From the NCBI GenBank assembly GCA_018970085.1, contig JAGWXD010000043.1, positions 401 through 24,400 on the forward strand: a DNA stretch of 24,000 nucleotides. The letters run 5' to 3'. Origin of the DNA: Cyanobacteria bacterium REEB459 (GTDB lineage: Bacteria > Cyanobacteriota > Cyanobacteriia > Phormidesmidales > Phormidesmidaceae). How positions within the stretch are numbered: the stretch's first letter is position 1; each line of letters starts with the position of its first letter. Positions 4,211-20,935 of the stretch are shown here, piece after piece. A program made the position numbers and the translations under genes. The notes below the pieces were generated by a model, which saw nothing but the letters and a program-made list of their open reading frames with translations, did not search any database and was not told the origin of the DNA.

Positions 4211-5197
4211 CTAGGACAGGGGAGGAGGACCAGGGCGGGAGGGAATCTCTGGTTCACAGGTAAATTTAGCCCAGCGGGAGGGCGTTGGTAGGGCCGACTC
4301 AGCATCGCTGGCGGGTTTAAGAACAGGCATGAGCATACAGGTCTTCTCTAGATAGTAACTGCCTGGCTCAGCGGTGGGCCCGGTCCAGACGGCCAAAATC
4401 TTGAGCTCGTAGCCCTCTGCCTGGCTCTGGGGCTGGGGCAGTTGGATCTGCCAGAGTGAACTCTCAGGCGATGCCTGGGAATGGCTCTGGATCTGGGTTT
4501 GAATGGTTTGCTGATGGCCCTCACGGTTGAGCAGCCACCGTTCTACCGCCGACCAGGGCTGACCATCGGTTTGATCGGCAATAAAGCTTTCTGCCTCCGC
4601 CAAATGGGCCATCCCAGCCGATAGGGGCAGGGGTTGACCAGGCAGGCGATAGACAAAATTACTAGCACCGAAGCGATCGGCCCCCAGGCTGGGGTAGTCT
4701 TTCAACCAGCTTTGAATCCGAAAATGAAACTGTATCCAGCTACTGATTAAAAGACTAAAAAAAAATAGTAGCACTAAGCGTTGCCGCACTGGGGGCAGGG
4801 GGCGCTTGGGCTGGAGGTCCCAGGTCAGGACTTCGGGCACCGCCGCCACGCAAAACGAAATCAGGGGCCAACAAACCAGAGCCGTTGGTAACCATGGGCC
4901 TTGCCACGAACTAAATAGAAATAAACAGAGAACTCCCCCCGCCACCCAGGGCGCCAGCGTTAGGCCAAAGGGCTTGATCTGGCTATGCTCTACGGCCCAG
5001 CCCAGACCTATGGCCAGAAAGATCCAGCTACCACTGGCGAGCAATCCTACGGTAAAGCCACTAGCCCCCAGCAACCGTCCCAGCAGAGACATCAACCAGG
5101 AAAAAATGCTCAAATACAGAATCGTCTGCCAGGAAAAGTAGCGCTCTGGCAATACCAGGGATTTAAAGGCGGCGATGGTCTGGCCTAACCACTTCAT
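4211..5197 (-). CDS. fraD: Membrane protein with five N-terminal TM helices and a soluble C-terminal half (FraD-like septal protein)
   Basis: 328 aa with about 5 predicted hydrophobic helices in the first 160 aa and a Q/P-rich soluble tail. Its ATG overlaps the upstream stop (ATGA at 5194-5197). The assignment rests on operon architecture and is not verified by alignment. Confidence 0.5.
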   Translation of the reverse strand: MKWLGQTIAAFKSLVLPERYFSWQTILYLSIFSWLMSLLGRLLGASGFTVGLLASGSWIFLAIGLGWAVEHSQIKPFGLTLAPWVAGGVLCLFLFSSWQGPWLPTALVCWPLISFCVAAVPEVLTWDLQPKRPLPPVRQRLVLLFFFSLLISSWIQFHFRIQSWLKDYPSLGADRFGASNFVYRLPGQPLPLSAGMAHLAEAESFIADQTDGQPWSAVERWLLNREGHQQTIQTQIQSHSQASPESSLWQIQLPQPQSQAEGYELKILAVWTGPTAEPGSYYLEKTCMLMPVLKPASDAESALPTPSRWAKFTCEPEIPSRPGPPPLS

Positions 5198-5977: not shown

Positions 5978-7108
5978 ATGGCTAGAACTGGCATTGGCAT
6001 TCGCACCGCTCAAGAAACCAATCAACGCCTGACCGGACAAATCCACGTCTATGACGGCGAGGGCAAGGGCAAGTCCCAGGTGGCCTTGGGGGTGGTTTTG
6101 CGCTCCATTGGGCTGGGTATTCAAAACTTCTTAGAGAGTCGAGTGTTACTATTGCGCTTCTTGAAGGGGCCTGGGCGCACCTATGACGAAGACGCCGCCA
6201 TCGAGGCTCTGCAACGGGGGTTTCCCCATCTGATTGATCAGGTTCGCACCGGCCGGGCTGAGTTTTTTGGAGTTGGCGACATTACCCGATTCGACAAACA
6301 AGAAGCTCAGCGGGGTTGGGATGTGGCTAAGGGGGCGATCGCCTCAGGGCTATACTCCGTTGTGGTCTTAGACGAAATCAACCCGGTACTCGATCTGGGG
6401 TTGCTACCCATCGATGAGGTGGTCAAAACCCTGGGCCAAAAACCTGCCCAACTGGAAATCATTGCCACTGGTCGGGGCGCCCCTCGCCCCCTGCTCGATA
6501 TTGCCGATCTGCACTCAGAGATGAAACCCCAGCCCCACCAGGGAGATCTGCCGGGTCTTGAGGGCATAGAAATCTACACCGGTGCCGGCAAGGGTAAATC
6601 CACCAGCGCCCTGGGTAAAGCCCTCCAGGCAATCGGTCGGGGCATTAGCCAGGACCTATCCCACCGGGTACTGATTATTCAGTGGCTGAAAGGAGGTAAG
6701 GGGTACACAGAAGACGCCGCGATCGCCGCCTTACGCAGAAGTTATCCCAACCTGGTAGACCACCAACGTTGCGGACGGGACGCCATTGTTTGGCGAGGTC
6801 AGCAACAATCCATCGACTACGTTGAAGCCGAGCGAGGCTGGGAAATTGCCCGTACAGCGATCGCCTCTGGACTCTATAAGACCATCATCCTAGACGAGTT
6901 AAATCCCACGGTTGACCTAGAGTTGCTGCCAGAGGAACCAATTGTCCAGGCTCTTTTGCGCAAACCCAGAGATACGGAGGTCATTATTACCGGTCGTTGC
7001 AAAGTTCCCCCGGCCTACTTTAAGCTAGCCAGCACCCACTCAGAAGTCTTTAACCATAAACACTATGCCGAAAAGGGCATTGATCTAAAACGGGGAGTGG
7101 ATTTTTAA
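5978..7108 (+). CDS. cobO: Tandem-duplicated cob(I)yrinic acid a,c-diamide adenosyltransferase (CobO/BtuR-like) protein
   Basis: There are two homologous halves. Half 1 has IHVYDGEGKGKSQVALG, VVLDEINPVLDLGLL and IIATGRGAPRPLLDIADLHSEM. Half 2 has IEIYTGAGKGKSTSALG, IILDELNPTVDLELL, VIITGRCKVPPAYFKLASTHSEVFNHKHY and KRGVDF. These are CobA/CobO P-loop and C-terminal motifs. Confidence 0.8.
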   Translation: MARTGIGIRTAQETNQRLTGQIHVYDGEGKGKSQVALGVVLRSIGLGIQNFLESRVLLLRFLKGPGRTYDEDAAIEALQRGFPHLIDQVRTGRAEFFGVGDITRFDKQEAQRGWDVAKGAIASGLYSVVVLDEINPVLDLGLLPIDEVVKTLGQKPAQLEIIATGRGAPRPLLDIADLHSEMKPQPHQGDLPGLEGIEIYTGAGKGKSTSALGKALQAIGRGISQDLSHRVLIIQWLKGGKGYTEDAAIAALRRSYPNLVDHQRCGRDAIVWRGQQQSIDYVEAERGWEIARTAIASGLYKTIILDELNPTVDLELLPEEPIVQALLRKPRDTEVIITGRCKVPPAYFKLASTHSEVFNHKHYAEKGIDLKRGVDF

Positions 7109-8619: not shown

Positions 8620-8697
<78 letters not shown>

Positions 8698-8841: not shown

Positions 8842-9930
8842 ATGGCCAGGAACCAAAAAAACGACGTTGCCATCGAGAATATAGATGGGTGGATTCGCCT
8901 TCGCTGGCAGTACCAGGGAAAGCGTTGCAGCTTGCGCCTGGGCTTGCCCTATGACCCGATAAATTTGGCTGTTGCCCAGCAACGGGTCAGCCAGATCAGG
9001 CTAGATATTCTCTCAGGTCACTATGATCCATCCCTGGTAAAGTACCGAGGCGGTGAACCCAAGCCACAGGTCATAGGAGCAGTGGAGCTCTTCACCCGGT
9101 TTATCGATTGGAAAGCCAAGCGGGTACAACCCAGGACGCTGGAGAAGTACTACGCCTTAACAGTTTGGCTGAAGGATCAGTTTGGCGATCGCAGCGTTGA
9201 TCCAGAGAATGCCGAAAAGTTCCTAGCCCACTTGCTAGATAACATGGAACCCATCACCGCCAGGGAGCGCCTGGCATTGCTTAACGCCGCCTGGGAATGG
9301 GGAGGGAAGCAGAACCTGGTGTCAGGTAACCCCTGGAGTGATTTAAGGGTCAGGAAGCCCCCTAAGCAAGCCCCCAAGCCATTTACCAAGGCACAGGTAG
9401 CTGCTATCATTGCCGGATTTAGTGAGTCTCGTTACTACCGCCACTATGCCGATTATGTACGGTTCAAGTTGGGGACGGGTTGCAGGACTGGAGAGGTCGC
9501 CGGGCTGCGGTGGAAGCACATTACTGCCGATTGCTCCTTAGTTTGGTTTGGCGAAAGCTTCACTCACGGGCAATTCAAGGACACTAAGACAGGCAAAGCC
9601 AGGGAAGTAAAATTATCCTCCTCTTTGGCCACCATGCTTAAAAATCGGATGCCGGACGATGTTGACCCCGATGCCTTGGTGTTCAGTGCTCCCAAGGGAG
9701 GGGCAATGGATGAACATAATTTTTGCAGAGCCTGGAGAATCGTCCTAAAAGCCCAGGGCATTGCCTACCGAAACCCATACAATACCCGCCATACCTTTAT
9801 CAGCCATGCTTTAGAGGCAGGCATGAGCCCAGTAGAAGTAGCTACCATCACAGGCCATAACGTCAAAACACTATTTGAGAATTACGCCGGCCTGATCAAG
9901 AGCCACCCCACCACACCAGAGCTGTTTTAA
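8842..9930 (+). CDS. Tyrosine-type site-specific integrase
   Basis: The C-terminal catalytic region has GCRTGEVAGLRW (Arg), NTRHTFISHALEAGMSPVEVATITGH (H-x-x-R ... H) and FENYAG (Tyr). The N-terminal arm-type domain reads IDGWIRLRWQYQGKR. Confidence 0.9.
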   Translation: MARNQKNDVAIENIDGWIRLRWQYQGKRCSLRLGLPYDPINLAVAQQRVSQIRLDILSGHYDPSLVKYRGGEPKPQVIGAVELFTRFIDWKAKRVQPRTLEKYYALTVWLKDQFGDRSVDPENAEKFLAHLLDNMEPITARERLALLNAAWEWGGKQNLVSGNPWSDLRVRKPPKQAPKPFTKAQVAAIIAGFSESRYYRHYADYVRFKLGTGCRTGEVAGLRWKHITADCSLVWFGESFTHGQFKDTKTGKAREVKLSSSLATMLKNRMPDDVDPDALVFSAPKGGAMDEHNFCRAWRIVLKAQGIAYRNPYNTRHTFISHALEAGMSPVEVATITGHNVKTLFENYAGLIKSHPTTPELF

Positions 9931-10952: not shown

Positions 10953-11948
10953 TCATTCCAGAATTTCGTCATGATTTCCTGTATTTTTGCCGTTATCCCC
11001 AGAACAGTTTTCTTGAGGCCCCTCGGGGCCAAGCACTAAGCCCCAGTCTGGATTTTGGGCAATTGCCTGGCGAATACCTGGACGACAGGCAGGACTTTGC
11101 CAGAGCTGCTGGTATCGCCTGAGGCGTTCGGTTGGGGTCTCCTGCACCGGTGGGGGTAACGGTGGGGGGCTAGGGTGGGTCTGATGGGTGGTAACAGTTT
11201 CACCCCAGTGTTGATATTCCTGGTAAAGCACATCGCCATATTTTTGGATCCAAGCCGTCGCTACACTCCGGGGAGAAGCGGGTTTCTCGGGCAGACGTGG
11301 AATTTTATAGCTCACCACCCACTCAAAGAAGTCAACATCCAGGAGTAAGGGATCGGGTTCTGGAGAGCTGTTCTGGGGATTGAAAAAGTCATCGCCCCCT
11401 TTTCTCTCTCTTGGATCGGATCTGAAATAGATCTGAGAAAGATCTGTAGGTCTCTGGACCCCTTGCCTGGCAATGGTTTCAGGAGCTAATTGTGACATCC
11501 CTGACACACCCTGGGACATTTCTGACACACCCTGTGACACCTCTGACACACCCGGATCCTGGGACATTTTTGTCACAGTTGTGTCAATTTGACTCACCTG
11601 CCCTAGGCCATCCCCCTGGTCTTCCGGTCCATGGTTGGGAACACGCAGGTCAATGGCGTCATCAATGTTTTCCTCCAGCCTCCCGGCCAGGAGGAGCTGG
11701 GCCTTGGCCCGGTAGAAAGCCCGTCGATTCATCTCCCACTGGCGACAAAACTGAGAGATGTTATCAATGCGGAGCCACCAACCCTGACGCCGTAGGGCCA
11801 GGAGCAAATGGTACAGATAACCCGTAGGGGTATAAAACCCCTGCTGCCAGTTTGCTAACACCTGAGCTGGCGTCAACCGCAGATGGCAGGCATGATCAGA
11901 TTGACGCACCACCCCAGGGGGTTTGCGCCCTCGATGACGATATTTCAT
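10953..11948 (-). CDS. Hypothetical protein with N-terminal winged-helix-like region and internal heptapeptide repeats (possible replication/DNA-binding protein)
   Basis: 331 aa. The N-terminus YLYHLLLALRRQGWWLRIDNISQFCRQWEMNRRAFYRAKAQLLLAGRL looks wHTH-like. The central GVSEVSQ/GVSEMSQ/GVSGMSQ repeat is encoded by 21-bp tandem repeats. The C-terminus is P-rich. Confidence 0.6.
   Translation of the reverse strand: MKYRHRGRKPPGVVRQSDHACHLRLTPAQVLANWQQGFYTPTGYLYHLLLALRRQGWWLRIDNISQFCRQWEMNRRAFYRAKAQLLLAGRLEENIDDAIDLRVPNHGPEDQGDGLGQVSQIDTTVTKMSQDPGVSEVSQGVSEMSQGVSGMSQLAPETIARQGVQRPTDLSQIYFRSDPRERKGGDDFFNPQNSSPEPDPLLLDVDFFEWVVSYKIPRLPEKPASPRSVATAWIQKYGDVLYQEYQHWGETVTTHQTHPSPPPLPPPVQETPTERLRRYQQLWQSPACRPGIRQAIAQNPDWGLVLGPEGPQENCSGDNGKNTGNHDEILE
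11491..11553. repeat. 21-bp tandem repeat x3 (consensus TGKGACAYYTCTGACACACCC) plus degenerate TGTCA/GACA copies to about 11590
   Basis: Units lie at 11491-11511, 11512-11532 and 11533-11553. They are followed by tgggacatttttgtcacagttgtgtcaatttgactca. Confidence 0.9.
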
Positions 11949-13290: not shown

Positions 13291-14025
13291 CTAGGGCCCT
13301 TCCCCGACATAGCAGATCCGATTGGTGCCCCCAGAGCGGCTATAGGAGGAGCGATCGCCACAGGCTCGACCGGCATTATCTAGATCGTAGGGACAATCAC
13401 AGCGGCCCCGTTGGGGATCTCGAATCGGTACTGGAGTGGTCGGAGTCGGTTCCGGTAGGGGAGGGCTACTGGTTAACCCCTGACGGTAATCCCAGGGCAT
13501 TAGGGGGTTAGCCTGGCTCCAGAAATTTAACTTTGCCCGCCGGGCCTGGGCCTCCTCCGCCAGCAAAGTTTCTCGACTCTCTGGACAAGCGCTGAGGTAT
13601 TGCCGGTAGACCACCGCCTGGCCCTCCTGCACCAGCTTGAGGTTCACCGAAGTGCCATCCAGCAGGTATACCTCCGCCACAACTCGCCCGTAACGATCGC
13701 GGTCAACCTCTCGAAACCTGATCTCTGTTTTTTTAGGTAATAGTTCCCGCAGACGAGCAGCGGCAGCAGGACCGTAGGGAACCTGGGTTGATTCCGGAGC
13801 ATCAATACAGGCCATCCGTATCGTTAGCAGTTGACCTTGATAGGCCATCCGAAAGGTATCTCCATCACCGACAGAAATGACCGTACCAGTAGGTAGATTG
13901 GGACTCGGACTGGCAGTTTGTAGCGCTGGCGTAGGGGCTGGTTTCGTGAGATCGGCGGTGGCATTGGTGCCTACCAGAAGTAGTAGAGCCAGGGTCCCGG
14001 GAATCAAGTACTTGTATCTATTCAT
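13291..14025 (-). CDS. Secreted thermonuclease (staphylococcal nuclease/SNase family) with Cys-rich C-terminal tail
   Basis: The SNase core reads VGDGDTFRM..IRMACIDAPES..RYGRVVAEVYL..NLKLVQEGQAVVY..ARRAKLNFWS. I prefer ATG 14025 (MNRYKYLIPGTLALLLLVGTNATA, a signal peptide) over 14100. The tail reads RCDCPYDLDNAGRACGDRSSYSR. Confidence 0.85.
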   Translation of the reverse strand: MNRYKYLIPGTLALLLLVGTNATADLTKPAPTPALQTASPSPNLPTGTVISVGDGDTFRMAYQGQLLTIRMACIDAPESTQVPYGPAAAARLRELLPKKTEIRFREVDRDRYGRVVAEVYLLDGTSVNLKLVQEGQAVVYRQYLSACPESRETLLAEEAQARRAKLNFWSQANPLMPWDYRQGLTSSPPLPEPTPTTPVPIRDPQRGRCDCPYDLDNAGRACGDRSSYSRSGGTNRICYVGEGP

Positions 14026-14326
14026 GTCTAACTTGGTAGGGATGGATCCCTGAATGTGGTTGAATTCTTGCTTTCTAGTTTTAGCGCACCTTGCCTCCAA
14101 TATTGCCTACTGTCTCAAGGGCTCGGGCGTAGCCGGAGCCTCTAAAATATCTGCCCGGGCATCGCCGGGGCAGATCTCTAACCGAATCCTGAAAATCAGT
14201 TATCCCCAGAACAGCAGAGCCGTTAAGATTTAGAGGTGATAGATAAAAAAACAGATTCTAATCTCTGGATTAGCGCCGTTTCCTGTTTAATTTAGTGATG
14301 TTGGTTTAGCTGAAACCCTAAGACAG

Positions 14327-17281
14327 ATGGCTGGTATCCGGGTCCAATTCAGCACCTACTTGTACAAGCCGGTGATCCGGTCCATGGCTCTGGCGGGTTT
14401 AGGTCTGGCCCTCTCCCTGGCGATCGCGGGTGGGGTGAGACCGTCTGCCAGCCTGGCCCAGACCCAGGCCCCCACCCTGGTGGAGCGAGCCGATCAACTA
14501 TTGGAGAAACACCAACTGGCCCTGGGGGTAGCCGGCGCGGCGGTAGTGGGTTACCTGGGGGTACTGGGGCTGCGACCCCGATGGTTATTGAAACTCCCCT
14601 CCAAGGACATCACCCTACCCTGGACCCAGTGGACCCTACCCCTGACCCTGGTGAAGCCCTTGAAGTATCCCAACCGGGTGCTGGATGCCTGGGTGGAGGA
14701 TCATTGGCAGGTGGCGCGGGATCAATTTCTAGCCCTGGATACCGTAGATAACCGGACCCTTCACATTTCCCTACCGGTGGATCTGGACGGAATAACCCGG
14801 GAAGCCCTTCGCCCAGAGGATCTGGCTCCCACCTTTGCCAAGCAGCCCGCCCTTCTATTAATTACAGCGGAAGGGGGAGCGGGTAAAACCAGTTGGGCCT
14901 GCCAGATTGCCCAATGGGGGCTGGATAAAAAGTTAACTCAACACCGCCTGATTCCTTTATTGATTGAGAAGGACTTAGAGGAAGGGGTTTCCCTGCTAGA
15001 AACCCTGAGGGGGCGACTTGGCACCTTAACCGGCCAAAGTGATCCCCTGCCCCTGGACCTGGTGGAAAAGCTGCTGCGTCGCCAACGGTTGCTGGTGATT
15101 GTGGATCACCTATCGGAGATGGAAGCAACCACCCGTAAAGCCCTTAACCCGGATCTGCCGGACTTTGCCCCTAAGGCCCTGATTATCACCTCCCGTTTAG
15201 AGGAAAAGGATCGTCTGGGAAGTTTACCTAAGAGCATACTGAGGCCCCTACAGATTGAATCGACCCAGCTTTCGCTGTTTATGGTGGCCTACCTGAAGGC
15301 AAAAAATTTGGTGGGTCTACTGGAGGATGACGACTACTTTCTCGGTAGCGATCGCCTGCGCCGCATGACCGCCGATAAACCCATCACCCCCCTGCTGGCC
15401 TGCCTCTACATTGATCAGATGATCAACGAACGAAAAGGGGCCGGGGGCATCCTACCGGATTCTCTACCACGGTTGATGCTGAGCTACCTGACCCAGCTCA
15501 ACCGCGCCATCGAGCCCGCCAATAAACGGGAAGACCGGGAGGTACAACGGGATGCCAGGGCAGTGGCCTGGGCCTGTCTACAAAACACCTACCGCCCCAA
15601 CTGGATTAATACGGAAGCCGCCATCGCCGCCCTGGCCAGGGCGGAGGACAACACCGCCGAAGCCCGATTTCGCTACCTGAAGGACCGCCTATCCTTTCTG
15701 CAAAGCCCCGACCCGGGCGATCGCACCCGGGTGATATTAGACCCCCTGGCGGAATACCTGGCCGCCGCCTACCTGGTGGAACAGATTTCCCAGCAGCCAG
15801 ACCCCGAGGCGGCCTGGGAGGAGTTTTTTAGCCAGACCCTACCGGCCAAGCTGACCAAAACCGACAGTGATGCTATCCAGGTGAAGGGGTTCATCCTGGC
15901 CCTACGGGACTGCTGCCTTGACCAGAGCCAGGATGACGGCATCCCCGCCGGGGTGGCCGACCGCCTGGCCCGCACCGTTGATCTAGACCCCGAGGAACTG
16001 CGGCGCATCGAAGACCAGCGGCGGATTAAGCGGTTGATTGCCGACCTGGCGGAACCCAACCTAAAGGACCGCCTGCGGGCCGCCCAAGAGCTGACCACCT
16101 ACGGAGCCGCCGCCCGGGTGGCCGAACCCAACCTGGTGGGGATGCTAGAGAACCGCAAACAACAACCCCCCCAAGCCCGCCAGGCCGCCGCCGCCGCCCT
16201 GGGCAAACTGAAGATTGGCAACACCGCCCTGCTCACCCTGCTTCAGGATAGCCAAGAGGACCTGGAGGTGCGGGGCAGTGCCGCCCTGGCCCTGGGTGAA
16301 ATGGGCGCCGCCCAGGACACCCTATTGACCCTGCTCAACCATGAGCCCCAACCCCTGGCCCTGCGCCAGGCCGCCAGCCAGGCCCTGGGGTTAAGCGGGG
16401 GCCCCAGCAGCCAACCCCAGCCCATGCTAGAGCTAGGCCTGAGGGAGGGCCAGCCCCTCCCCCGGGTAATTAGCCCCCTGGTGTGGCGGGAAGCCCTGCC
16501 CCTGGAGCAAACCCTGGCCTTGGTGCAGATCCCGGCGGGGGAATTTGTGATGGGGTCTGGGGAGGGTGAGGAAGGCCGAGATTATTACCCCTATAATTTT
16601 CCAGAGACCCAAGGATTAGATGTAGAACAGCAACACCGGGTCAGCCTATCGGCCTTTTACCTGGGCCAGCACCCCGTCACCCAGGCCCAATGGCGAGCCG
16701 TCGCCAGCCTGCCCCCTATTAAGTATGAACTCAACCCAGACCCGGCCCAGTTTAAGGGGGAGCATCGACCCGTCGAGATGGTGACCTGGTATGAGGCGGT
16801 GGAATTTTGCGATCGCCTCTCTCAACACACCGGCAAACCCTACCGACTACCCAGCGAAGCGGAATGGGAATACGCCTGTCGGGCCGGTACCAGCACCCCC
16901 TTTTACTTCGGTGACACGATCACCCCCGACCTGGCCAACTACAACGGTAACTACAGTTATGGCTCTGGGCCGAAGGGAACCTATCGAGAACAGACTACCC
17001 CGGTGGGTAGCTTTGGGGTGAACCCCTGGGGACTAGCGGACATGCACGGTAATGTTTTGGAGTGGTGTGAAGACCACTGGCACCCCAGCTACGACAGTGC
17101 CCCCAGGGATGGTAGCGCCTGGGTGACTGGTGGCGATGATCGCTTTCGCCTGGTGCGGGGCGGGTCCGGGTTTAGCCTCCCAGTGGGCTGTCGCTCGGCC
17201 TTCCGCAATCGCCTCGATCCGAATGCTCGATTCAATGTCATCGGTTTTCGGGTGGTGTGTGCGCCGCCTGGGCTCCTGTAG
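14327..17281 (+). CDS. DGR target (variable) protein: TM helices, NACHT-like P-loop NTPase, HEAT repeats, FGE-sulfatase/C-type-lectin-fold domain carrying the VR
   Basis: Hydrophobic segments occur at aa ~20-36 and ~64-83. Walker A is ITAEGGAGKTSW (nt ~14870-14890). Walker B-like is RLLVIVDHLSEM (~15085-15120). Four PBS-lyase-type HEAT repeats (RLRAAQEL.., ARQAAAAALGKL, LEVRGSAALALGEMG, LALRQAASQALG) span nt ~16020-16400. The FGE/SUMF1 domain (GEFVMGS..HRVSLSAFYLGQHPVTQAQW..VTWYEAVEFC..LPSEAEWEYACRAG..GLADMHGNVLEWCED..VRGGS..IGFRVV) spans nt ~16515-17278. Confidence 0.9.
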   Translation: MAGIRVQFSTYLYKPVIRSMALAGLGLALSLAIAGGVRPSASLAQTQAPTLVERADQLLEKHQLALGVAGAAVVGYLGVLGLRPRWLLKLPSKDITLPWTQWTLPLTLVKPLKYPNRVLDAWVEDHWQVARDQFLALDTVDNRTLHISLPVDLDGITREALRPEDLAPTFAKQPALLLITAEGGAGKTSWACQIAQWGLDKKLTQHRLIPLLIEKDLEEGVSLLETLRGRLGTLTGQSDPLPLDLVEKLLRRQRLLVIVDHLSEMEATTRKALNPDLPDFAPKALIITSRLEEKDRLGSLPKSILRPLQIESTQLSLFMVAYLKAKNLVGLLEDDDYFLGSDRLRRMTADKPITPLLACLYIDQMINERKGAGGILPDSLPRLMLSYLTQLNRAIEPANKREDREVQRDARAVAWACLQNTYRPNWINTEAAIAALARAEDNTAEARFRYLKDRLSFLQSPDPGDRTRVILDPLAEYLAAAYLVEQISQQPDPEAAWEEFFSQTLPAKLTKTDSDAIQVKGFILALRDCCLDQSQDDGIPAGVADRLARTVDLDPEELRRIEDQRRIKRLIADLAEPNLKDRLRAAQELTTYGAAARVAEPNLVGMLENRKQQPPQARQAAAAALGKLKIGNTALLTLLQDSQEDLEVRGSAALALGEMGAAQDTLLTLLNHEPQPLALRQAASQALGLSGGPSSQPQPMLELGLREGQPLPRVISPLVWREALPLEQTLALVQIPAGEFVMGSGEGEEGRDYYPYNFPETQGLDVEQQHRVSLSAFYLGQHPVTQAQWRAVASLPPIKYELNPDPAQFKGEHRPVEMVTWYEAVEFCDRLSQHTGKPYRLPSEAEWEYACRAGTSTPFYFGDTITPDLANYNGNYSYGSGPKGTYREQTTPVGSFGVNPWGLADMHGNVLEWCEDHWHPSYDSAPRDGSAWVTGGDDRFRLVRGGSGFSLPVGCRSAFRNRLDPNARFNVIGFRVVCAPPGLL
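17147..17270 (+). repeat. DGR variable repeat (VR), 3' end of the target gene
   Basis: Gap-free 124-bp alignment to 19014-19137 (offset 1867). There are 20 mismatches, 19 of them at TR adenines. The repeat is in frame and encodes [41 protein letters not shown]. Confidence 0.9.
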
Positions 17282-17331
17282 CCCTTTACCCTTTTGCGCT
17301 TTTGCCCTTTGCCCTGGGTCGAGGTTCGAAT

Positions 17332-17346
17332 ACGCGCGGAGCGCGT
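17332..17346 (+). terminator. GC hairpin ACGCGC-GGA-GCGCGT followed by TTTAAAAATTTTT (terminator and/or DGR target-recognition hairpin)
   Basis: Perfect 6-bp GC-rich stem, 51 nt after the target stop codon, with an A/T tract downstream. Confidence 0.4.
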
Positions 17347-17485
17347 TTAAAAATTTTTCAGTGCCACGGCTGGGTATTCGTTCTAGCTGGCCGGCGACTA
17401 TAACCTTAGGTAACATTATGGGCCACCGCCACATCTAGGGGTGTAGAGTGATATTTTCACCCCTTTACCCCCAGATAGGCAATTT

Positions 17486-17863
17486 ATGACTAAACCTGCC
17501 GTCGCCGATTTGCCCGTCATTCAAAAAGCTTACGATCTGGTGAAGTGGTACGTCCCCATTCTGAACCGCCTACCCCGAGATCATCGTTTCACCCTGGGGG
17601 AACGCATCATTCAAGGGCTCTATGACCTGTTAGAAGGCCTGATCCAGGCCCGTTACAGCGCCAATAAACTAGAGCGTCTACAAACCCTCAACATCCGCCT
17701 GGACCTGCTTCGCCACCAAACCCGACTTCTATTCGACTTTCACCTGATGGAGGTTAGTCGTTATGAGTATGTTGGCACGATGATCAACGACCTGGGCATG
17801 GAACTAGGGGGATGGATAAAACAACAGAAAACCCGTCAGCCCCCCTCACTGCACCCCAGTTAA
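17486..17863 (+). CDS. avd: DGR accessory variability determinant (Avd), four-helix-bundle protein
   Basis: 125 aa. [50 protein letters not shown] matches the four-helix-bundle / 23S rRNA-IVS protein family used as DGR Avd. It lies immediately upstream of the RT. Confidence 0.85.
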
Positions 17864-17879
17864 ACCCCGGGTAACCACC

Positions 17880-18956
17880 ATGAAACGCCACGGCTACCTG
17901 TGGGAGGGGATTATTGACTTTGCCAACCTGCTGGCAGCGGCCCGCCAGGCCCAGAAAGGGCGACGGATGCGGGATAACATTCTGCGCTTTAACTACAACC
18001 TGGAATCAGAACTCCTCCAACTACGCCAGGAACTGATCAACCAAACCTATTCTCCTGGACCCTACACCACCTTTCAGGTGAGGGAACCCAAGGCCCGATT
18101 AATTTCTGCCGCACCCTACCGGGACCGGGTGATTCACCATGCCCTGTGTAACGTGATCCTACCGATCTTTGAGGTCACCTTCATTCGTGATTCCTACGCT
18201 AACCGGCTGGGCTATGGCAGCCATCGAGCCCTGAAGCGATTTATCGAATTTAGCCGCTCCAGCCGCTATATCTTGCAATGTGACGTGCGCAAGTACTTCC
18301 CCTCCATCGACCATGCCCTTCTCAAGGAAATGATTCGCCGCAAGATCAAATGCCCCCCTACCCTGTGGCTGATTGATCGGATCATCGATGCCAGCAACGA
18401 CCAGGAGCCGGTGATTGACTATTTCCCTGGAGATGACCTACTCACCCCCATTCAGCGGCGGCGGGGCCTACCGATTGGTAACCTGACCAGTCAATTCTTT
18501 GCCAACATCTACCTGAATAGCCTGGATCACCTGGTCAAAGAACAGCTCCGTATAGCAAAGTATCTGCGCTACGTCGATGACTTTGCCCTATTTGCCGATG
18601 ACCGAGATACCTTAATCACAGCCCGCTTAGCTCTCGAAGCCCACCTAGCCAAACTACGCTTGAGGATTCACCCCATTAAAAGTCAACTGTTTGAAACATC
18701 CCGAGGCCCCACCTTTGTTGGGTTTCGGGTTTGCCCAGACCGGGTGCGGGTCAGATCCGCCAGCCTTCGCCGTGGTCGATATCGCCTGAAACGATATCAA
18801 CGACAGTACGCCCAGCATGATTTATCCTTCGAGCAACTGACCCAGGCCATTCGTAGCTGGGCAGCCCACCTGAAACATGCCGACACCTGGCACTTGAGAG
18901 CCGACATTTTTACCCAGTTAGTGTTTGTCAAAACTCCCAAGCTGCAAACAAGATGA
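17880..18956 (+). CDS. DGR reverse transcriptase
   Basis: RT motifs are present: [47 protein letters not shown] (the DGR-typical I/LGxxxSQ), [14 protein letters not shown] (catalytic YVDD) and FVGFRV. At 358 aa it has no maturase or endonuclease extension. Confidence 0.9.
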
Positions 18957-19013
18957 AAAATACTCCACTCAAGGCCAATTTAGCCTAGGGTGAAGGCTAG
19001 GGGCAGGTCAGCC

Positions 19014-19137
19014 CACCTGGTGCGGGGCGGGTCCTGGTATAACAACCCAGTAAACTGTCGCTCGGCCAACCGCAATCGCAACAATCCGAATAATCGAAAC
19101 AATAACATCGGTTTTCGGGTGGTGTGTGCGCCGCCTG
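19014..19137 (+). repeat. DGR template repeat (TR)
   Basis: It starts 57 nt after the RT stop. In the VR frame it reads [41 protein letters not shown], with 12 AAY codons. Adenines at third codon positions occur only in 4-fold degenerate codons (CCA, GTA, CGA). The last 28 nt contain no adenine and are identical to the VR. Confidence 0.9.
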
Positions 19138-19503
19138 CACTCTTGAGCGCCAGAGCCAGTCAATGATCATTGATTGGGCGTGCCCATAAGAGTCCAGACC
19201 TGCTCCTGTCATACCCCCTGGCTCTCTAATCCTGGAGACCTGGTATGCAAAAACACCCCTGGGCTGAGCAGCCTGGTAGGCCATAGCTCGACGGGTTGTT
19301 TAGCCCATCCCTCCATTTGCCCGAGCTGCGGACCTTAAGAGATGCGGACCTTAAGAAAGGTTTTTAGATTTGAGCTCCCTAATCACTCCCCCGTAGAGTG
19401 AATAAATCACATCACACTCCCGACCCTGCCACCCCGGCGGGGTTCTTAGTTTGTGGTTGTCATCGCTGACGTCACAACTAACCCTGGGCTTCAGTGCCCC
19501 CCC

Positions 19504-20121: not shown

Positions 20122-20161
20122 AATTTCAACTCCTTTAACTCAAGTTTTGCTAGACAAGCCC

Positions 20162-20935
20162 TTAGGGAAAGCAAAACAAACTGGGCTGAAACCCCGACAC
20201 CGCCGCCGCCGCCAGCCCCGTATCTAGATCAATGCCAATGGCGTCATAGCCCCGCTCACCCGCCGCCAACAAAGAGGTACCCGTGCCACAAAAGGGATCC
20301 AACACCGTAGCCCGCTGCCGCGTTGCACAGCCGAGTAACCGCCGGGCCAGGGCCGGGGCCATCTTACAGGGATGCTCTGAAGCCACCGACGGATAGGCCA
20401 GCACACTGGTATCGGTGGGGGTATAGGCTAACCGGGGCCGCTGCCGGCGATCGCAACCCAACACAAACACATACTCATGGCAACGGCGAGGATTGCCCAA
20501 GGGCTGCTGACTGCGGTTACCCTGATGCCAGATCAAGGTTTCACGATGCACCCACCCCGCCCCCTGCAACCGCTGTAGCAATAGCCAGGGCACCGGTATC
20601 TCCTCCCCACTGCGATAGCCAGGCTCCGGCCTCCGGCGATAGGACGCCGCCGCCCCCCGACCCCCTCGCCTAACCACGCTATAGCCACTGGTGGTCGGCC
20701 CCAGGTTCAGCCACAACACCCCCCCCTGGGCCATACCCGCCTGCACCAGGGCAAACACCCGCTCTAGACAACCCAGATAGGCCCCTAGACTTTCCTCATG
20801 GCCGTACTCCCCCGGATGGCCGTAGTCAATCAGACCATAGTAGGGGGGACTGGTGAGGGCATAGTGCCACCCCCGGCCCTGGGAAAGGAGCGTTTGCAGG
20901 TGGGTCAGGGCATCGCCCTGGAATAGGTCAATCAT
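20162..20935 (-). CDS. DNA methyltransferase, N4/N6 family, beta-class motif order (orphan)
   Basis: Catalytic motif IV is LTSPPYYGL near the N-terminus. The AdoMet motif I, VLDPFCGTGTSLLAA, is near the C-terminus and is preceded by HPCKMAPALARRLL. Confidence 0.85.
   Translation of the reverse strand: MIDLFQGDALTHLQTLLSQGRGWHYALTSPPYYGLIDYGHPGEYGHEESLGAYLGCLERVFALVQAGMAQGGVLWLNLGPTTSGYSVVRRGGRGAAASYRRRPEPGYRSGEEIPVPWLLLQRLQGAGWVHRETLIWHQGNRSQQPLGNPRRCHEYVFVLGCDRRQRPRLAYTPTDTSVLAYPSVASEHPCKMAPALARRLLGCATRQRATVLDPFCGTGTSLLAAGERGYDAIGIDLDTGLAAAAVSGFQPSLFCFP

Follow-up and report, generated by a model that had tools for sequence, protein, structure and literature searches.

Among systems of solved structure, the diversity-generating retroelement (DGR) of Bordetella phage BPP-1 offers the closest comparison for the locus described here. 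Its genes are arranged mtd-avd-TR-brt, and its reverse transcriptase (RT), bRT, has been resolved in complex with the accessory variability determinant (Avd) and RNA (PDB 8ub7). The BPP-1 DGR RNA contains a "cPRT Stop" duplex, a template:primer duplex formed between the template repeat (TR) and the spacer, an Avd-binding 9-bp stem-loop and a further stem-loop with A-minor adenosines after it; the template:primer duplex ends at the priming adenosine, Sp A56, which is followed by G57, and like RNA elements have been predicted for the DGRs of Cyanobacteriota (Handa et al., bioRxiv 10.1101/2023.10.23.563531). DGRs with the gene order avd-RT-TR have been classed as architecture B2, and one group of RTs, Lineage 4, occurs in cyanobacteria only (Wu et al., 2018, PMC5758913); this cyanobacterial lineage has also been described as a monophyletic clade (Vallota-Eastman et al., 2020) and as clade 5E (Dore et al., 2024). 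Here we analyze an element that begins at position 14327 of a 24,000-nt stretch of DNA from Cyanobacteria bacterium REEB459 (hereafter the window, whose coordinates are used throughout and refer to the plus strand unless stated otherwise). We are very confident that it is a DGR of the cyanobacteria-specific lineage, with a target-avd-RT-TR architecture, and that it is functional or was so until very recently. It is a typical representative of that known lineage and does not reveal a new kind of system. What our analysis adds is evidence of activity from the comparison of strains, the true extent of the element (to ~19306, within a cassette that reaches ~19465), a mechanistic model at the level of coordinates, and a candidate target-site motif that is conserved.

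The element comprises four collinear parts: a target gene (14327-17281, 984 aa), avd (17486-17863, 125 aa), the RT gene (17880-18956, 358 aa) and the TR (19016-19137, 122 nt). This is the arrangement given in an earlier interpretation made from the nucleotides alone (hereafter the sequence-only reading), apart from the distance between the RT stop codon and the TR, which is 59 nt and not 57 nt. All three open reading frames (ORFs) are whole and the RT motifs are present, including YVDDFALF, in keeping with the claim that the protein parts are intact. Indeed, every defining feature of a DGR that could be tested was found, namely the RT, Avd, an adenine-biased difference between the TR and the variable repeat (VR), a VR in a lectin domain, AAY codons, a difference between the initiation of mutagenic homing (IMH) sequence and its TR counterpart (IMH*), and a conserved flanking RNA, and the proposal of a full DGR thereby stands.

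The 122-nt VR (17149-17270) ends 11 nt before the target stop codon and aligns without gaps to the TR at an offset of 1867 nt, within a direct repeat that overall joins 17149-17278 with 19016-19145. This 122-nt core contains 19 mismatches, 18 of which lie at TR adenines and the last of which is a T to G change at TR position 19035; the differences are thus nearly all at TR adenines, as the sequence-only reading had stated, and are not spread over the four bases. Counting two edge columns as well, adenines account for 19 of 21 mismatches, and of the 30 TR adenines 19 differ in the VR (hypergeometric p = 8e-13). The TR has 29 adenines, which in the frame of the VR make up 12 AAC/AAT (AAY) codons together with TAT and ATC, and the changes occur at positions 1 and 2 of the AAC/AAT codons. 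No stop codon can be reached by mutation of TR adenines, and the number of reachable protein variants is ~1e15-1e16, with one estimate at ~8e15. Searching both strands of the window with TR adenines as wildcards, at full length and in 40-nt sub-windows, we found no second VR. At the 3' end of the VR (17261-17278), an IMH-like sequence consists of the GC-rich block GCGCCGCCTG followed by GGCTCCTG; in IMH* the same block is followed by CACTCTTG. Directly after CCTG, the TR has C where the VR has G, and this difference, which is kept in all nine TR/VR pairs of the relatives, is of the kind that separates IMH from IMH* in DGRs and is predicted to act as the discriminator here.

The protein components are equally characteristic. 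The RT (RVT_1, 4e-21) finds its best match among solved structures in bRT (PDB 8ub7, 1.8e-49); the leading group II RT reaches 3.8e-19. It carries both the catalytic YVDD box and IGNLTSQ, an instance of the DGR signature [I/L]GxxxSQ in motif 4, and it conserves the equivalents of bRT R74 (KARLISA) and I181 (LPIG), residues which, in the solved bRT complex, make contact with the template base and with the incoming nucleotide (Handa et al., bioRxiv 10.1101/2023.10.23.563531). In NCBIfam, the group II RT model reaches 126.9 (cutoff 300) and the retron St85 model 52.9 (cutoff 235), while Rfam reports no group II intron or retron RNA, a tRNA being the only family in the window. Because bRT is the best match, the group II and retron models fall far below their cutoffs and no intron or retron RNA accompanies the gene, the RT does not side with retrons or group II introns; its class, which the sequence-only reading had recognized as that of DGRs, is assigned here by motifs and by similarity to RTs of solved structure. 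Avd is identified by Pfam bAvd (6.7e-19) and by the NCBIfam equivalog NF033474, DivGenRetAVD (136.8 bits vs a cutoff of 80), with a match of 0.003 to the Bordetella phage Avd, Bbp7 (PDB 4dwl); the Avd of the REEB459 metagenome-assembled genome (MAG) already bears the name of a DGR protein at NCBI. PADLOC matched the RT with generic RT models only and returned no model for Avd. Accordingly, the locus resembles the BPP-1 DGR in its homologous RT with conserved catalytic and adenine-mutagenesis residues, in Avd, in adenine-specific transfer from TR to VR and in the IMH/IMH* difference, whereas the BPP-1 target is a phage tail-fibre protein and the target here is a cellular multidomain NTPase.

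Comparison of strains indicates that the element has been at work. An invariant 29-mer from the repeat led to four related loci, L001-L004 (one from a metagenome and three from genomes). The TR is 100% identical over its 122 nt in the window, L001, L003 and L004. The VRs of the window, L004, L003 and L002 (n = 4) each depart from this TR at 14-19 sites, 13-18 of them adenines, and any two of these VRs are separated by 18-23 differences, with 17-22 at TR-adenine positions. In every strain, by comparison, 92-93 of the 93 non-adenine VR positions (99-100%) equal the TR, amid VR flanks that are only 87-96% identical between strains (400 nt upstream, 180 nt in L003; 180 nt downstream). The heterogeneity limited to TR-adenine positions that the sequence-only reading proposed to look for in populations is thus seen among related strains, and three further proteins (P0150, P0160 and P0161) carry more VR variants at the same Asn-templated positions. 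Since the non-adenine sites have been homogenized to the TR while the flanks diverged, the VR must have been repeatedly overwritten and randomized at adenines only; and since different VRs accompany one TR in strains that are 4-10% diverged, homing went on after the strains split. This is the mark left by repeated rounds of mutagenic retrohoming, and it shows activity of the element after the strains diverged. With a frozen template, adenine-only scrambling and homogenization of all other sites, the locus is a clean natural case in which the activity of a cellular DGR is legible from strain comparison.

The broader lineage displays the same organization. Nearly all named matches among the best 120 RT homologues (65-99% identity) are cyanobacterial, one being labelled Acidobacteria, and the RT appears, by similarity and conserved gene order, to belong to the cyanobacterial DGR lineage. 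We compared eight loci from relatives, which have RTs of 65-76% identity and unrelated flanks. Avd lies upstream of the RT in seven of the eight, the exception being L009, which begins at the RT and has no target; the region 3' of its RT aligns with the other TRs. In the seven loci with a target, the TR is found 60-100 nt downstream of the RT and the TR/VR differences are adenine-biased. Four of the relatives' loci have an NCH4-HEAT-FGE target, and in L012 one TR serves two caspase-FGE targets. Because the flanking genes are unrelated among loci, the avd-RT-TR unit must move or persist as a cassette. The sequence-only reading was right that the TR follows the RT; it had presented this order as unlike that of BPP-1, yet the order is not unusual, being the published architecture B2 (Wu et al., 2018) and common to all eight relatives examined, and it therefore constitutes no novelty. 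Alongside the common gene order and Avd, the window resembles the cyanobacterial lineage in its C-terminal FGE-type lectin VR, AAY-rich TR, filamentous host and occasional non-adenine changes. Its departures are matters of detail. It differs in its target, since kinase or vWA/VMAP-type targets are reported to be the most frequent among cyanobacteria (Dore et al., 2024; Vallota-Eastman et al., 2020) and a NACHT/NCH4-HEAT-FGE protein is encoded here, and in the counterpart of the Avd-binding stem-loop, which has a GAUC loop and not a GNRA loop.

The sequence-only reading placed the end of the element at 19137, which is too early. An alignment of nine loci from the RT through the TR and into the downstream region shows conservation from ~18996 to 19306, so that a functional non-coding part extends to ~19306 and the cassette boundary lies at ~19465. 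The conserved structure, which RNAalifold and explicit pair counting support, comprises 73 pairs with 95.6% of cells paired, as opposed to 30-46% when the partners are slid by 1-3 columns, and compensatory changes occur in 32 pairs; the observed values were reached by 0 of 500 shuffles. Moreover, the centroid fold of the window as a single sequence gives the same helices (z = -3.3). No Rfam family covers this TR-flanking RNA.

Helix by helix, this RNA can be mapped one-to-one onto the solved Bordetella phage complex despite the different gene order. The TR is enclosed by H1, a helix of 10 bp with four compensatory pairs and 95.6% of cells paired, in which the 5' strand GGGGCAGGTC (19000-19009) pairs with the 3' strand GACCTGCTCC (19197-19206); this is the counterpart of the BPP-1 "cPRT Stop" duplex. 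As the TR follows the RT here and lies between avd and brt in BPP-1, the upstream strand of the stop duplex falls in the RT-TR spacer and not in avd. The 3' end of the TR together with IMH* (TGCACTCTTG, 19136-19145) would serve as the template strand of H6, a predicted template:primer duplex in which the primer strand is TAAGAGTCCA (19187-19196); 100% of the H6 cells are paired in the nine loci, two pairs show compensatory change, and A19196 and the G that follows it are invariant. By analogy with BPP-1, we infer that A19196 is the priming nucleotide (the analogue of Sp A56) and that G19197 is the analogue of Sp G57. Between the two H6 strands, the 9-bp stem-loop H8 (19156-19177; CCAGTCAAT-GATC-ATTGATTGG, with strands 19156-19164/19169-19177) is the counterpart of the Avd-binding stem-loop and has compensatory change in six of nine pairs. 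Downstream, the stem-loop H9 (19208-19215/19242-19248) is 100% paired, with four of seven pairs compensatory, and is followed by a conserved A-rich single strand, AAAAACACCCCT (19249-19260); the two correspond to the stop stem-loop of BPP-1 and the A-minor adenosines that go with it. At the 3' end of the conserved RNA stands the hairpin H10/H11 (19261-19306; H10 19261-19273/19294-19306), in which 11 of 13 pairs are compensatory. Helices H2-H5, within the TR, are not claimed; they show little or no compensatory change, and their sequence is constrained by the coding VR copy.

Taken together with the repeat pair, these elements allow a mechanism to be proposed. The avd-RT-TR unit would be transcribed, with a transcript probably ending near 19445, and the 3' part of the transcript would fold such that H1 encloses the TR and the 3' end of the TR pairs with 19187-19196. 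The RT-Avd complex would bind through, among other contacts, the 9-bp stem-loop at 19156-19177, and cDNA would be primed in cis from A19196, the TR being copied from ~C19135 towards its 5' end with misincorporation opposite TR adenines until synthesis halts at H1. A cDNA that starts opposite ~C19135 and stops before 19009 fits the start of TR/VR homology at 19016, and the TR-specific C19138 (G17271 in the VR) would never be transferred because it lies 3' of the predicted initiation site. The cDNA would then replace the VR in the target gene, the direction being set by the IMH/IMH* difference (G17271 vs C19138), probably in combination with the pyrimidine tract and GC hairpin at 17282-17346 described below. 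The outcome of homing would be ~1e15 variants of 14-15 surface residues in the C-terminal C-type-lectin (FGE) domain. The match to BPP-1 supports the generality of cis-primed, RNA-guided reverse transcription among DGRs, and it supplies testable coordinates in the priming A19196, the stop helix 19000-19009/19197-19206 and the C19138/G17271 discriminator. As for the end of the transcript, a terminator-like hairpin with a T-rich tail at 19422-19444 marks the end of the cassette; it derives from a consensus scan whose site count is no higher than chance, and it is put forward as a candidate only. Upstream of it, in the non-conserved 3' tail of the cassette, we also observed a tandem 16-nt repeat, GAGCTGCGGACCTTAA / GAGATGCGGACCTTAA, at 19323-19354.

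The target site carries conserved features of its own beyond the VR. Between the target stop codon and a hairpin lies a pyrimidine-rich tract (17282-17331) that is present in all relatives, including after the remote second VR of L012. The hairpin (17332-17346), which reads ACGCGC-GGA-GCGCGT here and GCGCGAAGCGC in the relatives, is followed by TTTAAAAATTTTT; its core, GCGCG.AGCGC, is invariant in nine loci and recurs after both L012 VRs and after the VR of L002, a locus without avd. In BPP-1, a hairpin/cruciform 4 bp from the VR is required for efficient homing, and phage DGR hairpins have a stem of 7-10 bp and a 4-nt GRNA loop and lie 4-34 bp from the VR. The hairpin described here has a stem of 4-6 bp (6 in the window), a loop of 3 nt (GAA/GGA) and a distance of 62 nt from the VR, a geometry outside the phage range that counts against the functional reading of the element; Wu et al. 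(2018, PMC5758913) found such inverted repeats in just 34% of DGRs. It may be a target-site hairpin/cruciform equivalent to that of BPP-1, a terminator, or both, the terminator being considered because a T/A run follows. We tentatively propose, as a possibility that we rate as less likely than not, that the lineage uses a DNA target signal unlike that of BPP-1, consisting of the pyrimidine tract and the invariant GCGCG(A/G)AGCGC triloop hairpin ~60 nt after every VR, the remote one included, together with the C/G discriminator 3' of the predicted cis-priming site, and that 17453-19465 is a discrete 2-kb module lost or gained independently of the target. If both parts were true, the minimal portable parts for retargeting this class of DGR would be defined. 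Three ORFs, at 17130-17438 (+), 17033-17434 (-) and 18997-19284 (-), overlie conserved non-coding elements and were treated as spurious.

The target of this diversification is a protein of 984 aa with a hydrophobic N-terminus, a P-loop NTPase, NCH4 and HEAT regions, and a C-terminal FGE-sulfatase/C-type-lectin domain. The last of these (16517-17257; Pfam PF03781, aa 731-977, 2.3e-48) carries the VR; against PDB, the protein matches PvdO (5.5e-29) and, aligned over aa 836-980, the DGR variable protein TvpA of Treponema denticola (2y3c, 3.8e-24). TvpA likewise has an FGE-type C-type-lectin fold with the VR at its C-terminal end, but, being a short lipoprotein, it lacks NTPase and HEAT regions, and the accessory architecture of its DGR is different. 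NCH4 (aa 518-555, 2.9e-11, 43.4 bits vs a cutoff of 27) and HEAT_2 (aa 634-695, 8e-8) are identified by Pfam, and the NTPase is recognized by a Walker A motif, AEGGAGKT (aa 181-188), and a Walker B motif, LLVIVDH (aa 255). Pfam NACHT matches aa 179-271 only weakly (0.007; 16.6 bits, below the 26.7 cutoff), which counts against a NACHT assignment, while many homologues carry a precomputed PF05729 match. Two hydrophobic segments with flanking basic residues (~aa 16-38 and ~aa 64-82) suggest a protein tethered to the membrane with its bulk in the cytoplasm. The true start codon is uncertain, because the closest homologues are annotated from the equivalent of Met20 (14384), which is thus an alternative start. 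A collection of 15 billion proteins that includes the REEB459 RT and Avd lacks the target protein (best match 86% identity), and public annotation may have flagged the gene or not called it. Homologues of like architecture are widespread in filamentous cyanobacteria.

What such a protein might do is suggested by comparison with other multicellular bacteria. In DGRs 3 and 6 of Thiohalocapsa PB-PSB1 (Dore et al., 2024), a central STAND NTPase is likewise fused to a C-terminal, DGR-diversified FGE/CLec domain, and loci of this type also share an N-terminal extension without a recognized domain, predicted transmembrane segments in some cases, and a multicellular host. They differ in that their RTs belong mostly to clade 5D and usually serve two targets, whereas the window has an RT of the cyanobacterial clade and a single target; HEAT repeats stand between the NTPase and lectin domains here, unlike there, and the role as a sensor is hypothetical in both. 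DGR-diversified NACHT-CLec proteins have been proposed, not shown, to act as antigen sensors in multicellular bacteria (Dore et al., 2024; Kaur et al., 2020). By this analogy, the target is most plausibly a sensor of ligands or antigens. It would be a further instance, in a multicellular bacterium, of a STAND/NACHT-type protein whose lectin sensor is hypervariable, and it bears on the still hypothetical idea of DGR-based adaptive sensing or immunity.

The rival explanation that survives best leaves the DGR untouched and concerns only this role, holding that the target serves in regulation or signal transduction, with tuning to ligands from the environment, and is not an immune-type antigen sensor. 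Tuning of regulatory pathways has indeed been proposed for cyanobacterial DGR targets (Vallota-Eastman et al., 2020). This view also draws on negative results: no PADLOC defence model, bNACHT and Avs included, matches the target, and we found neither a recognized effector domain in the protein nor a conserved effector neighbour across the relatives' loci. The immune-type alternative, for its part, draws on the domain layout, since a STAND/NACHT NTPase followed by repeats and a variable C-terminal sensor is that of antiviral STAND proteins, on the proposals made for NACHT-CLec proteins, and on the setting of the gene in an integrase-bearing island beside a nuclease that matches a PADLOC candidate model. 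We consequently regard regulatory tuning as a serious contender, though one that falls a little short of an even chance.

A second rival accepts the DGR and questions its vigor: the element might be intact in sequence yet inactive, with the TR/VR differences as fossils of ancestral homing. Decay is certainly apparent among near relatives. In L002, a locus on a complete chromosome (Nodosilinea sp. LVE1205-7, CP089923.1, 3355-3680), the surroundings are collinear with the window, but 17453-19465 is precisely absent from this locus; the target is split into three ORFs, and the methyltransferase gene (window 20134-20925) is also missing. The 2.0-kb avd-RT-TR-RNA module (17453-19465) is accordingly present or absent as one block. 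The RT of L003 has an internal deletion of 165 nt (window 18145-18310; L003 3047-3056) that removes the motif A region, and a second deletion (window 19243-19404; L003 2123-2124) takes away the A-rich strand and the last DGR RNA hairpin, such that L003 is likely an inactivated copy or an assembly artefact. In L005, the VR (4339-4463) equals the TR (6143-6267) except for the IMH C/G marker, and it is thus an undiversified or freshly reset target. Within the window itself, the T19035 to G change is not at an adenine, the H8 loop is GAUC where more distant relatives have a GNRA loop (GGGA/GGCA), and a consensus scan identified no promoter for avd-RT-TR, its counts being not above chance. These observations, L002 and L003 among them, weigh against a functional element, and the evidence for homing is itself indirect, coming from the comparison of strains. 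Regardless, the window retains intact copies of all three ORFs and of every RNA helix, and strains that are 4-10% diverged have wholly different VRs on an identical TR with their non-adenine sites homogenized; even the orphan VR of L002 remains adenine-diversified, with 93 of 93 non-adenine sites identical to the window TR. The lineage holds both active and decaying copies, and the copy in the window is intact in every part that was tested. We therefore consider an inactive element improbable and retain the reading of a functional or very recently functional DGR.

The weakest alternative, that the repeat stems from partial gene duplication of the ordinary kind or from recombination and lies beside an unrelated retron, group II intron or defence RT, may appeal to the lack of a DGR-RT model in NCBIfam, where the best matches are group II intron and retron RT families, and to the JGI label of "retron-type reverse transcriptase" for homologues, but it is effectively refuted by the position of those matches far under cutoff, by the lead of bRT as best structural match by 30 orders of magnitude, by the adjacent Avd and the lack of group II or retron RNA in Rfam, by an adenine bias (p ~1e-12) impossible by neutral divergence, and by the conservation of the TR and flanking RNA with compensatory changes.

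The genomic setting of the DGR is that of a cyanobacterial chromosome with a probable insertion. The HIP1 sequence (GCGATCGC) occurs 20 times vs 0.2 expected, and the RT and Avd agree exactly with those of the REEB459 MAG, which is close to Nodosilinea; FraC and other chromosomal genes upstream indicate that the host is a filamentous cyanobacterium. Directly after a tRNA-Pro(GGG) gene (8624-8697) comes a tyrosine integrase that carries an Arm-DNA-binding domain (8842-9930), and from the integrase to the end of the window (24000) there follow an HTH protein, a staphylococcal-type nuclease, the DGR, a DdrB-like protein, a DNA methyltransferase and an AAA_24/phrog_1366 protein. The DGR probably lies within an integrated island or prophage remnant, although Wu et al. 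(2018, PMC5758913) reported the least phage association for Lineage 4; within the window, we detected no second copy of the tRNA-Pro 3' end that could represent attR. The staphylococcal-nuclease homologue (13291-14100, minus strand) is divergent from the target gene and, at 1.6e-17, matches "SNc+LTD", a candidate model of PADLOC. Related DGRs do not have it as a neighbour, and we rejected it as a conserved DGR partner because the flanks of the relatives are unrelated.

Some minor observations concern the remainder of the island and its counterparts. Four tandem 21-nt iterons (TGTGACAYYYCTGACACACCC) at 11489-11577, within or antisense to an ORF without a family match (10953-11948, minus strand), could represent a replication origin of the island or a site that binds protein repeatedly. 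The 16-mer GTTATCCCCAGAACAG is found in exact form at 10992-11007 and again at 14199-14214, the latter copy ~110 nt upstream of the target gene start, and the pair may reflect a common regulatory site or a chance match. Lastly, L001 (2-2463) and L003 (1908-1997) have a second target-like paralogue after the cassette, where the window has the DdrB-like gene. Upstream of this paralogue the sequence shows ~80% similarity to window 14193-14281, and for its FGE domain the similarity to window 16640-17157 is 73%; both contigs stop before any second VR of the paralogue.

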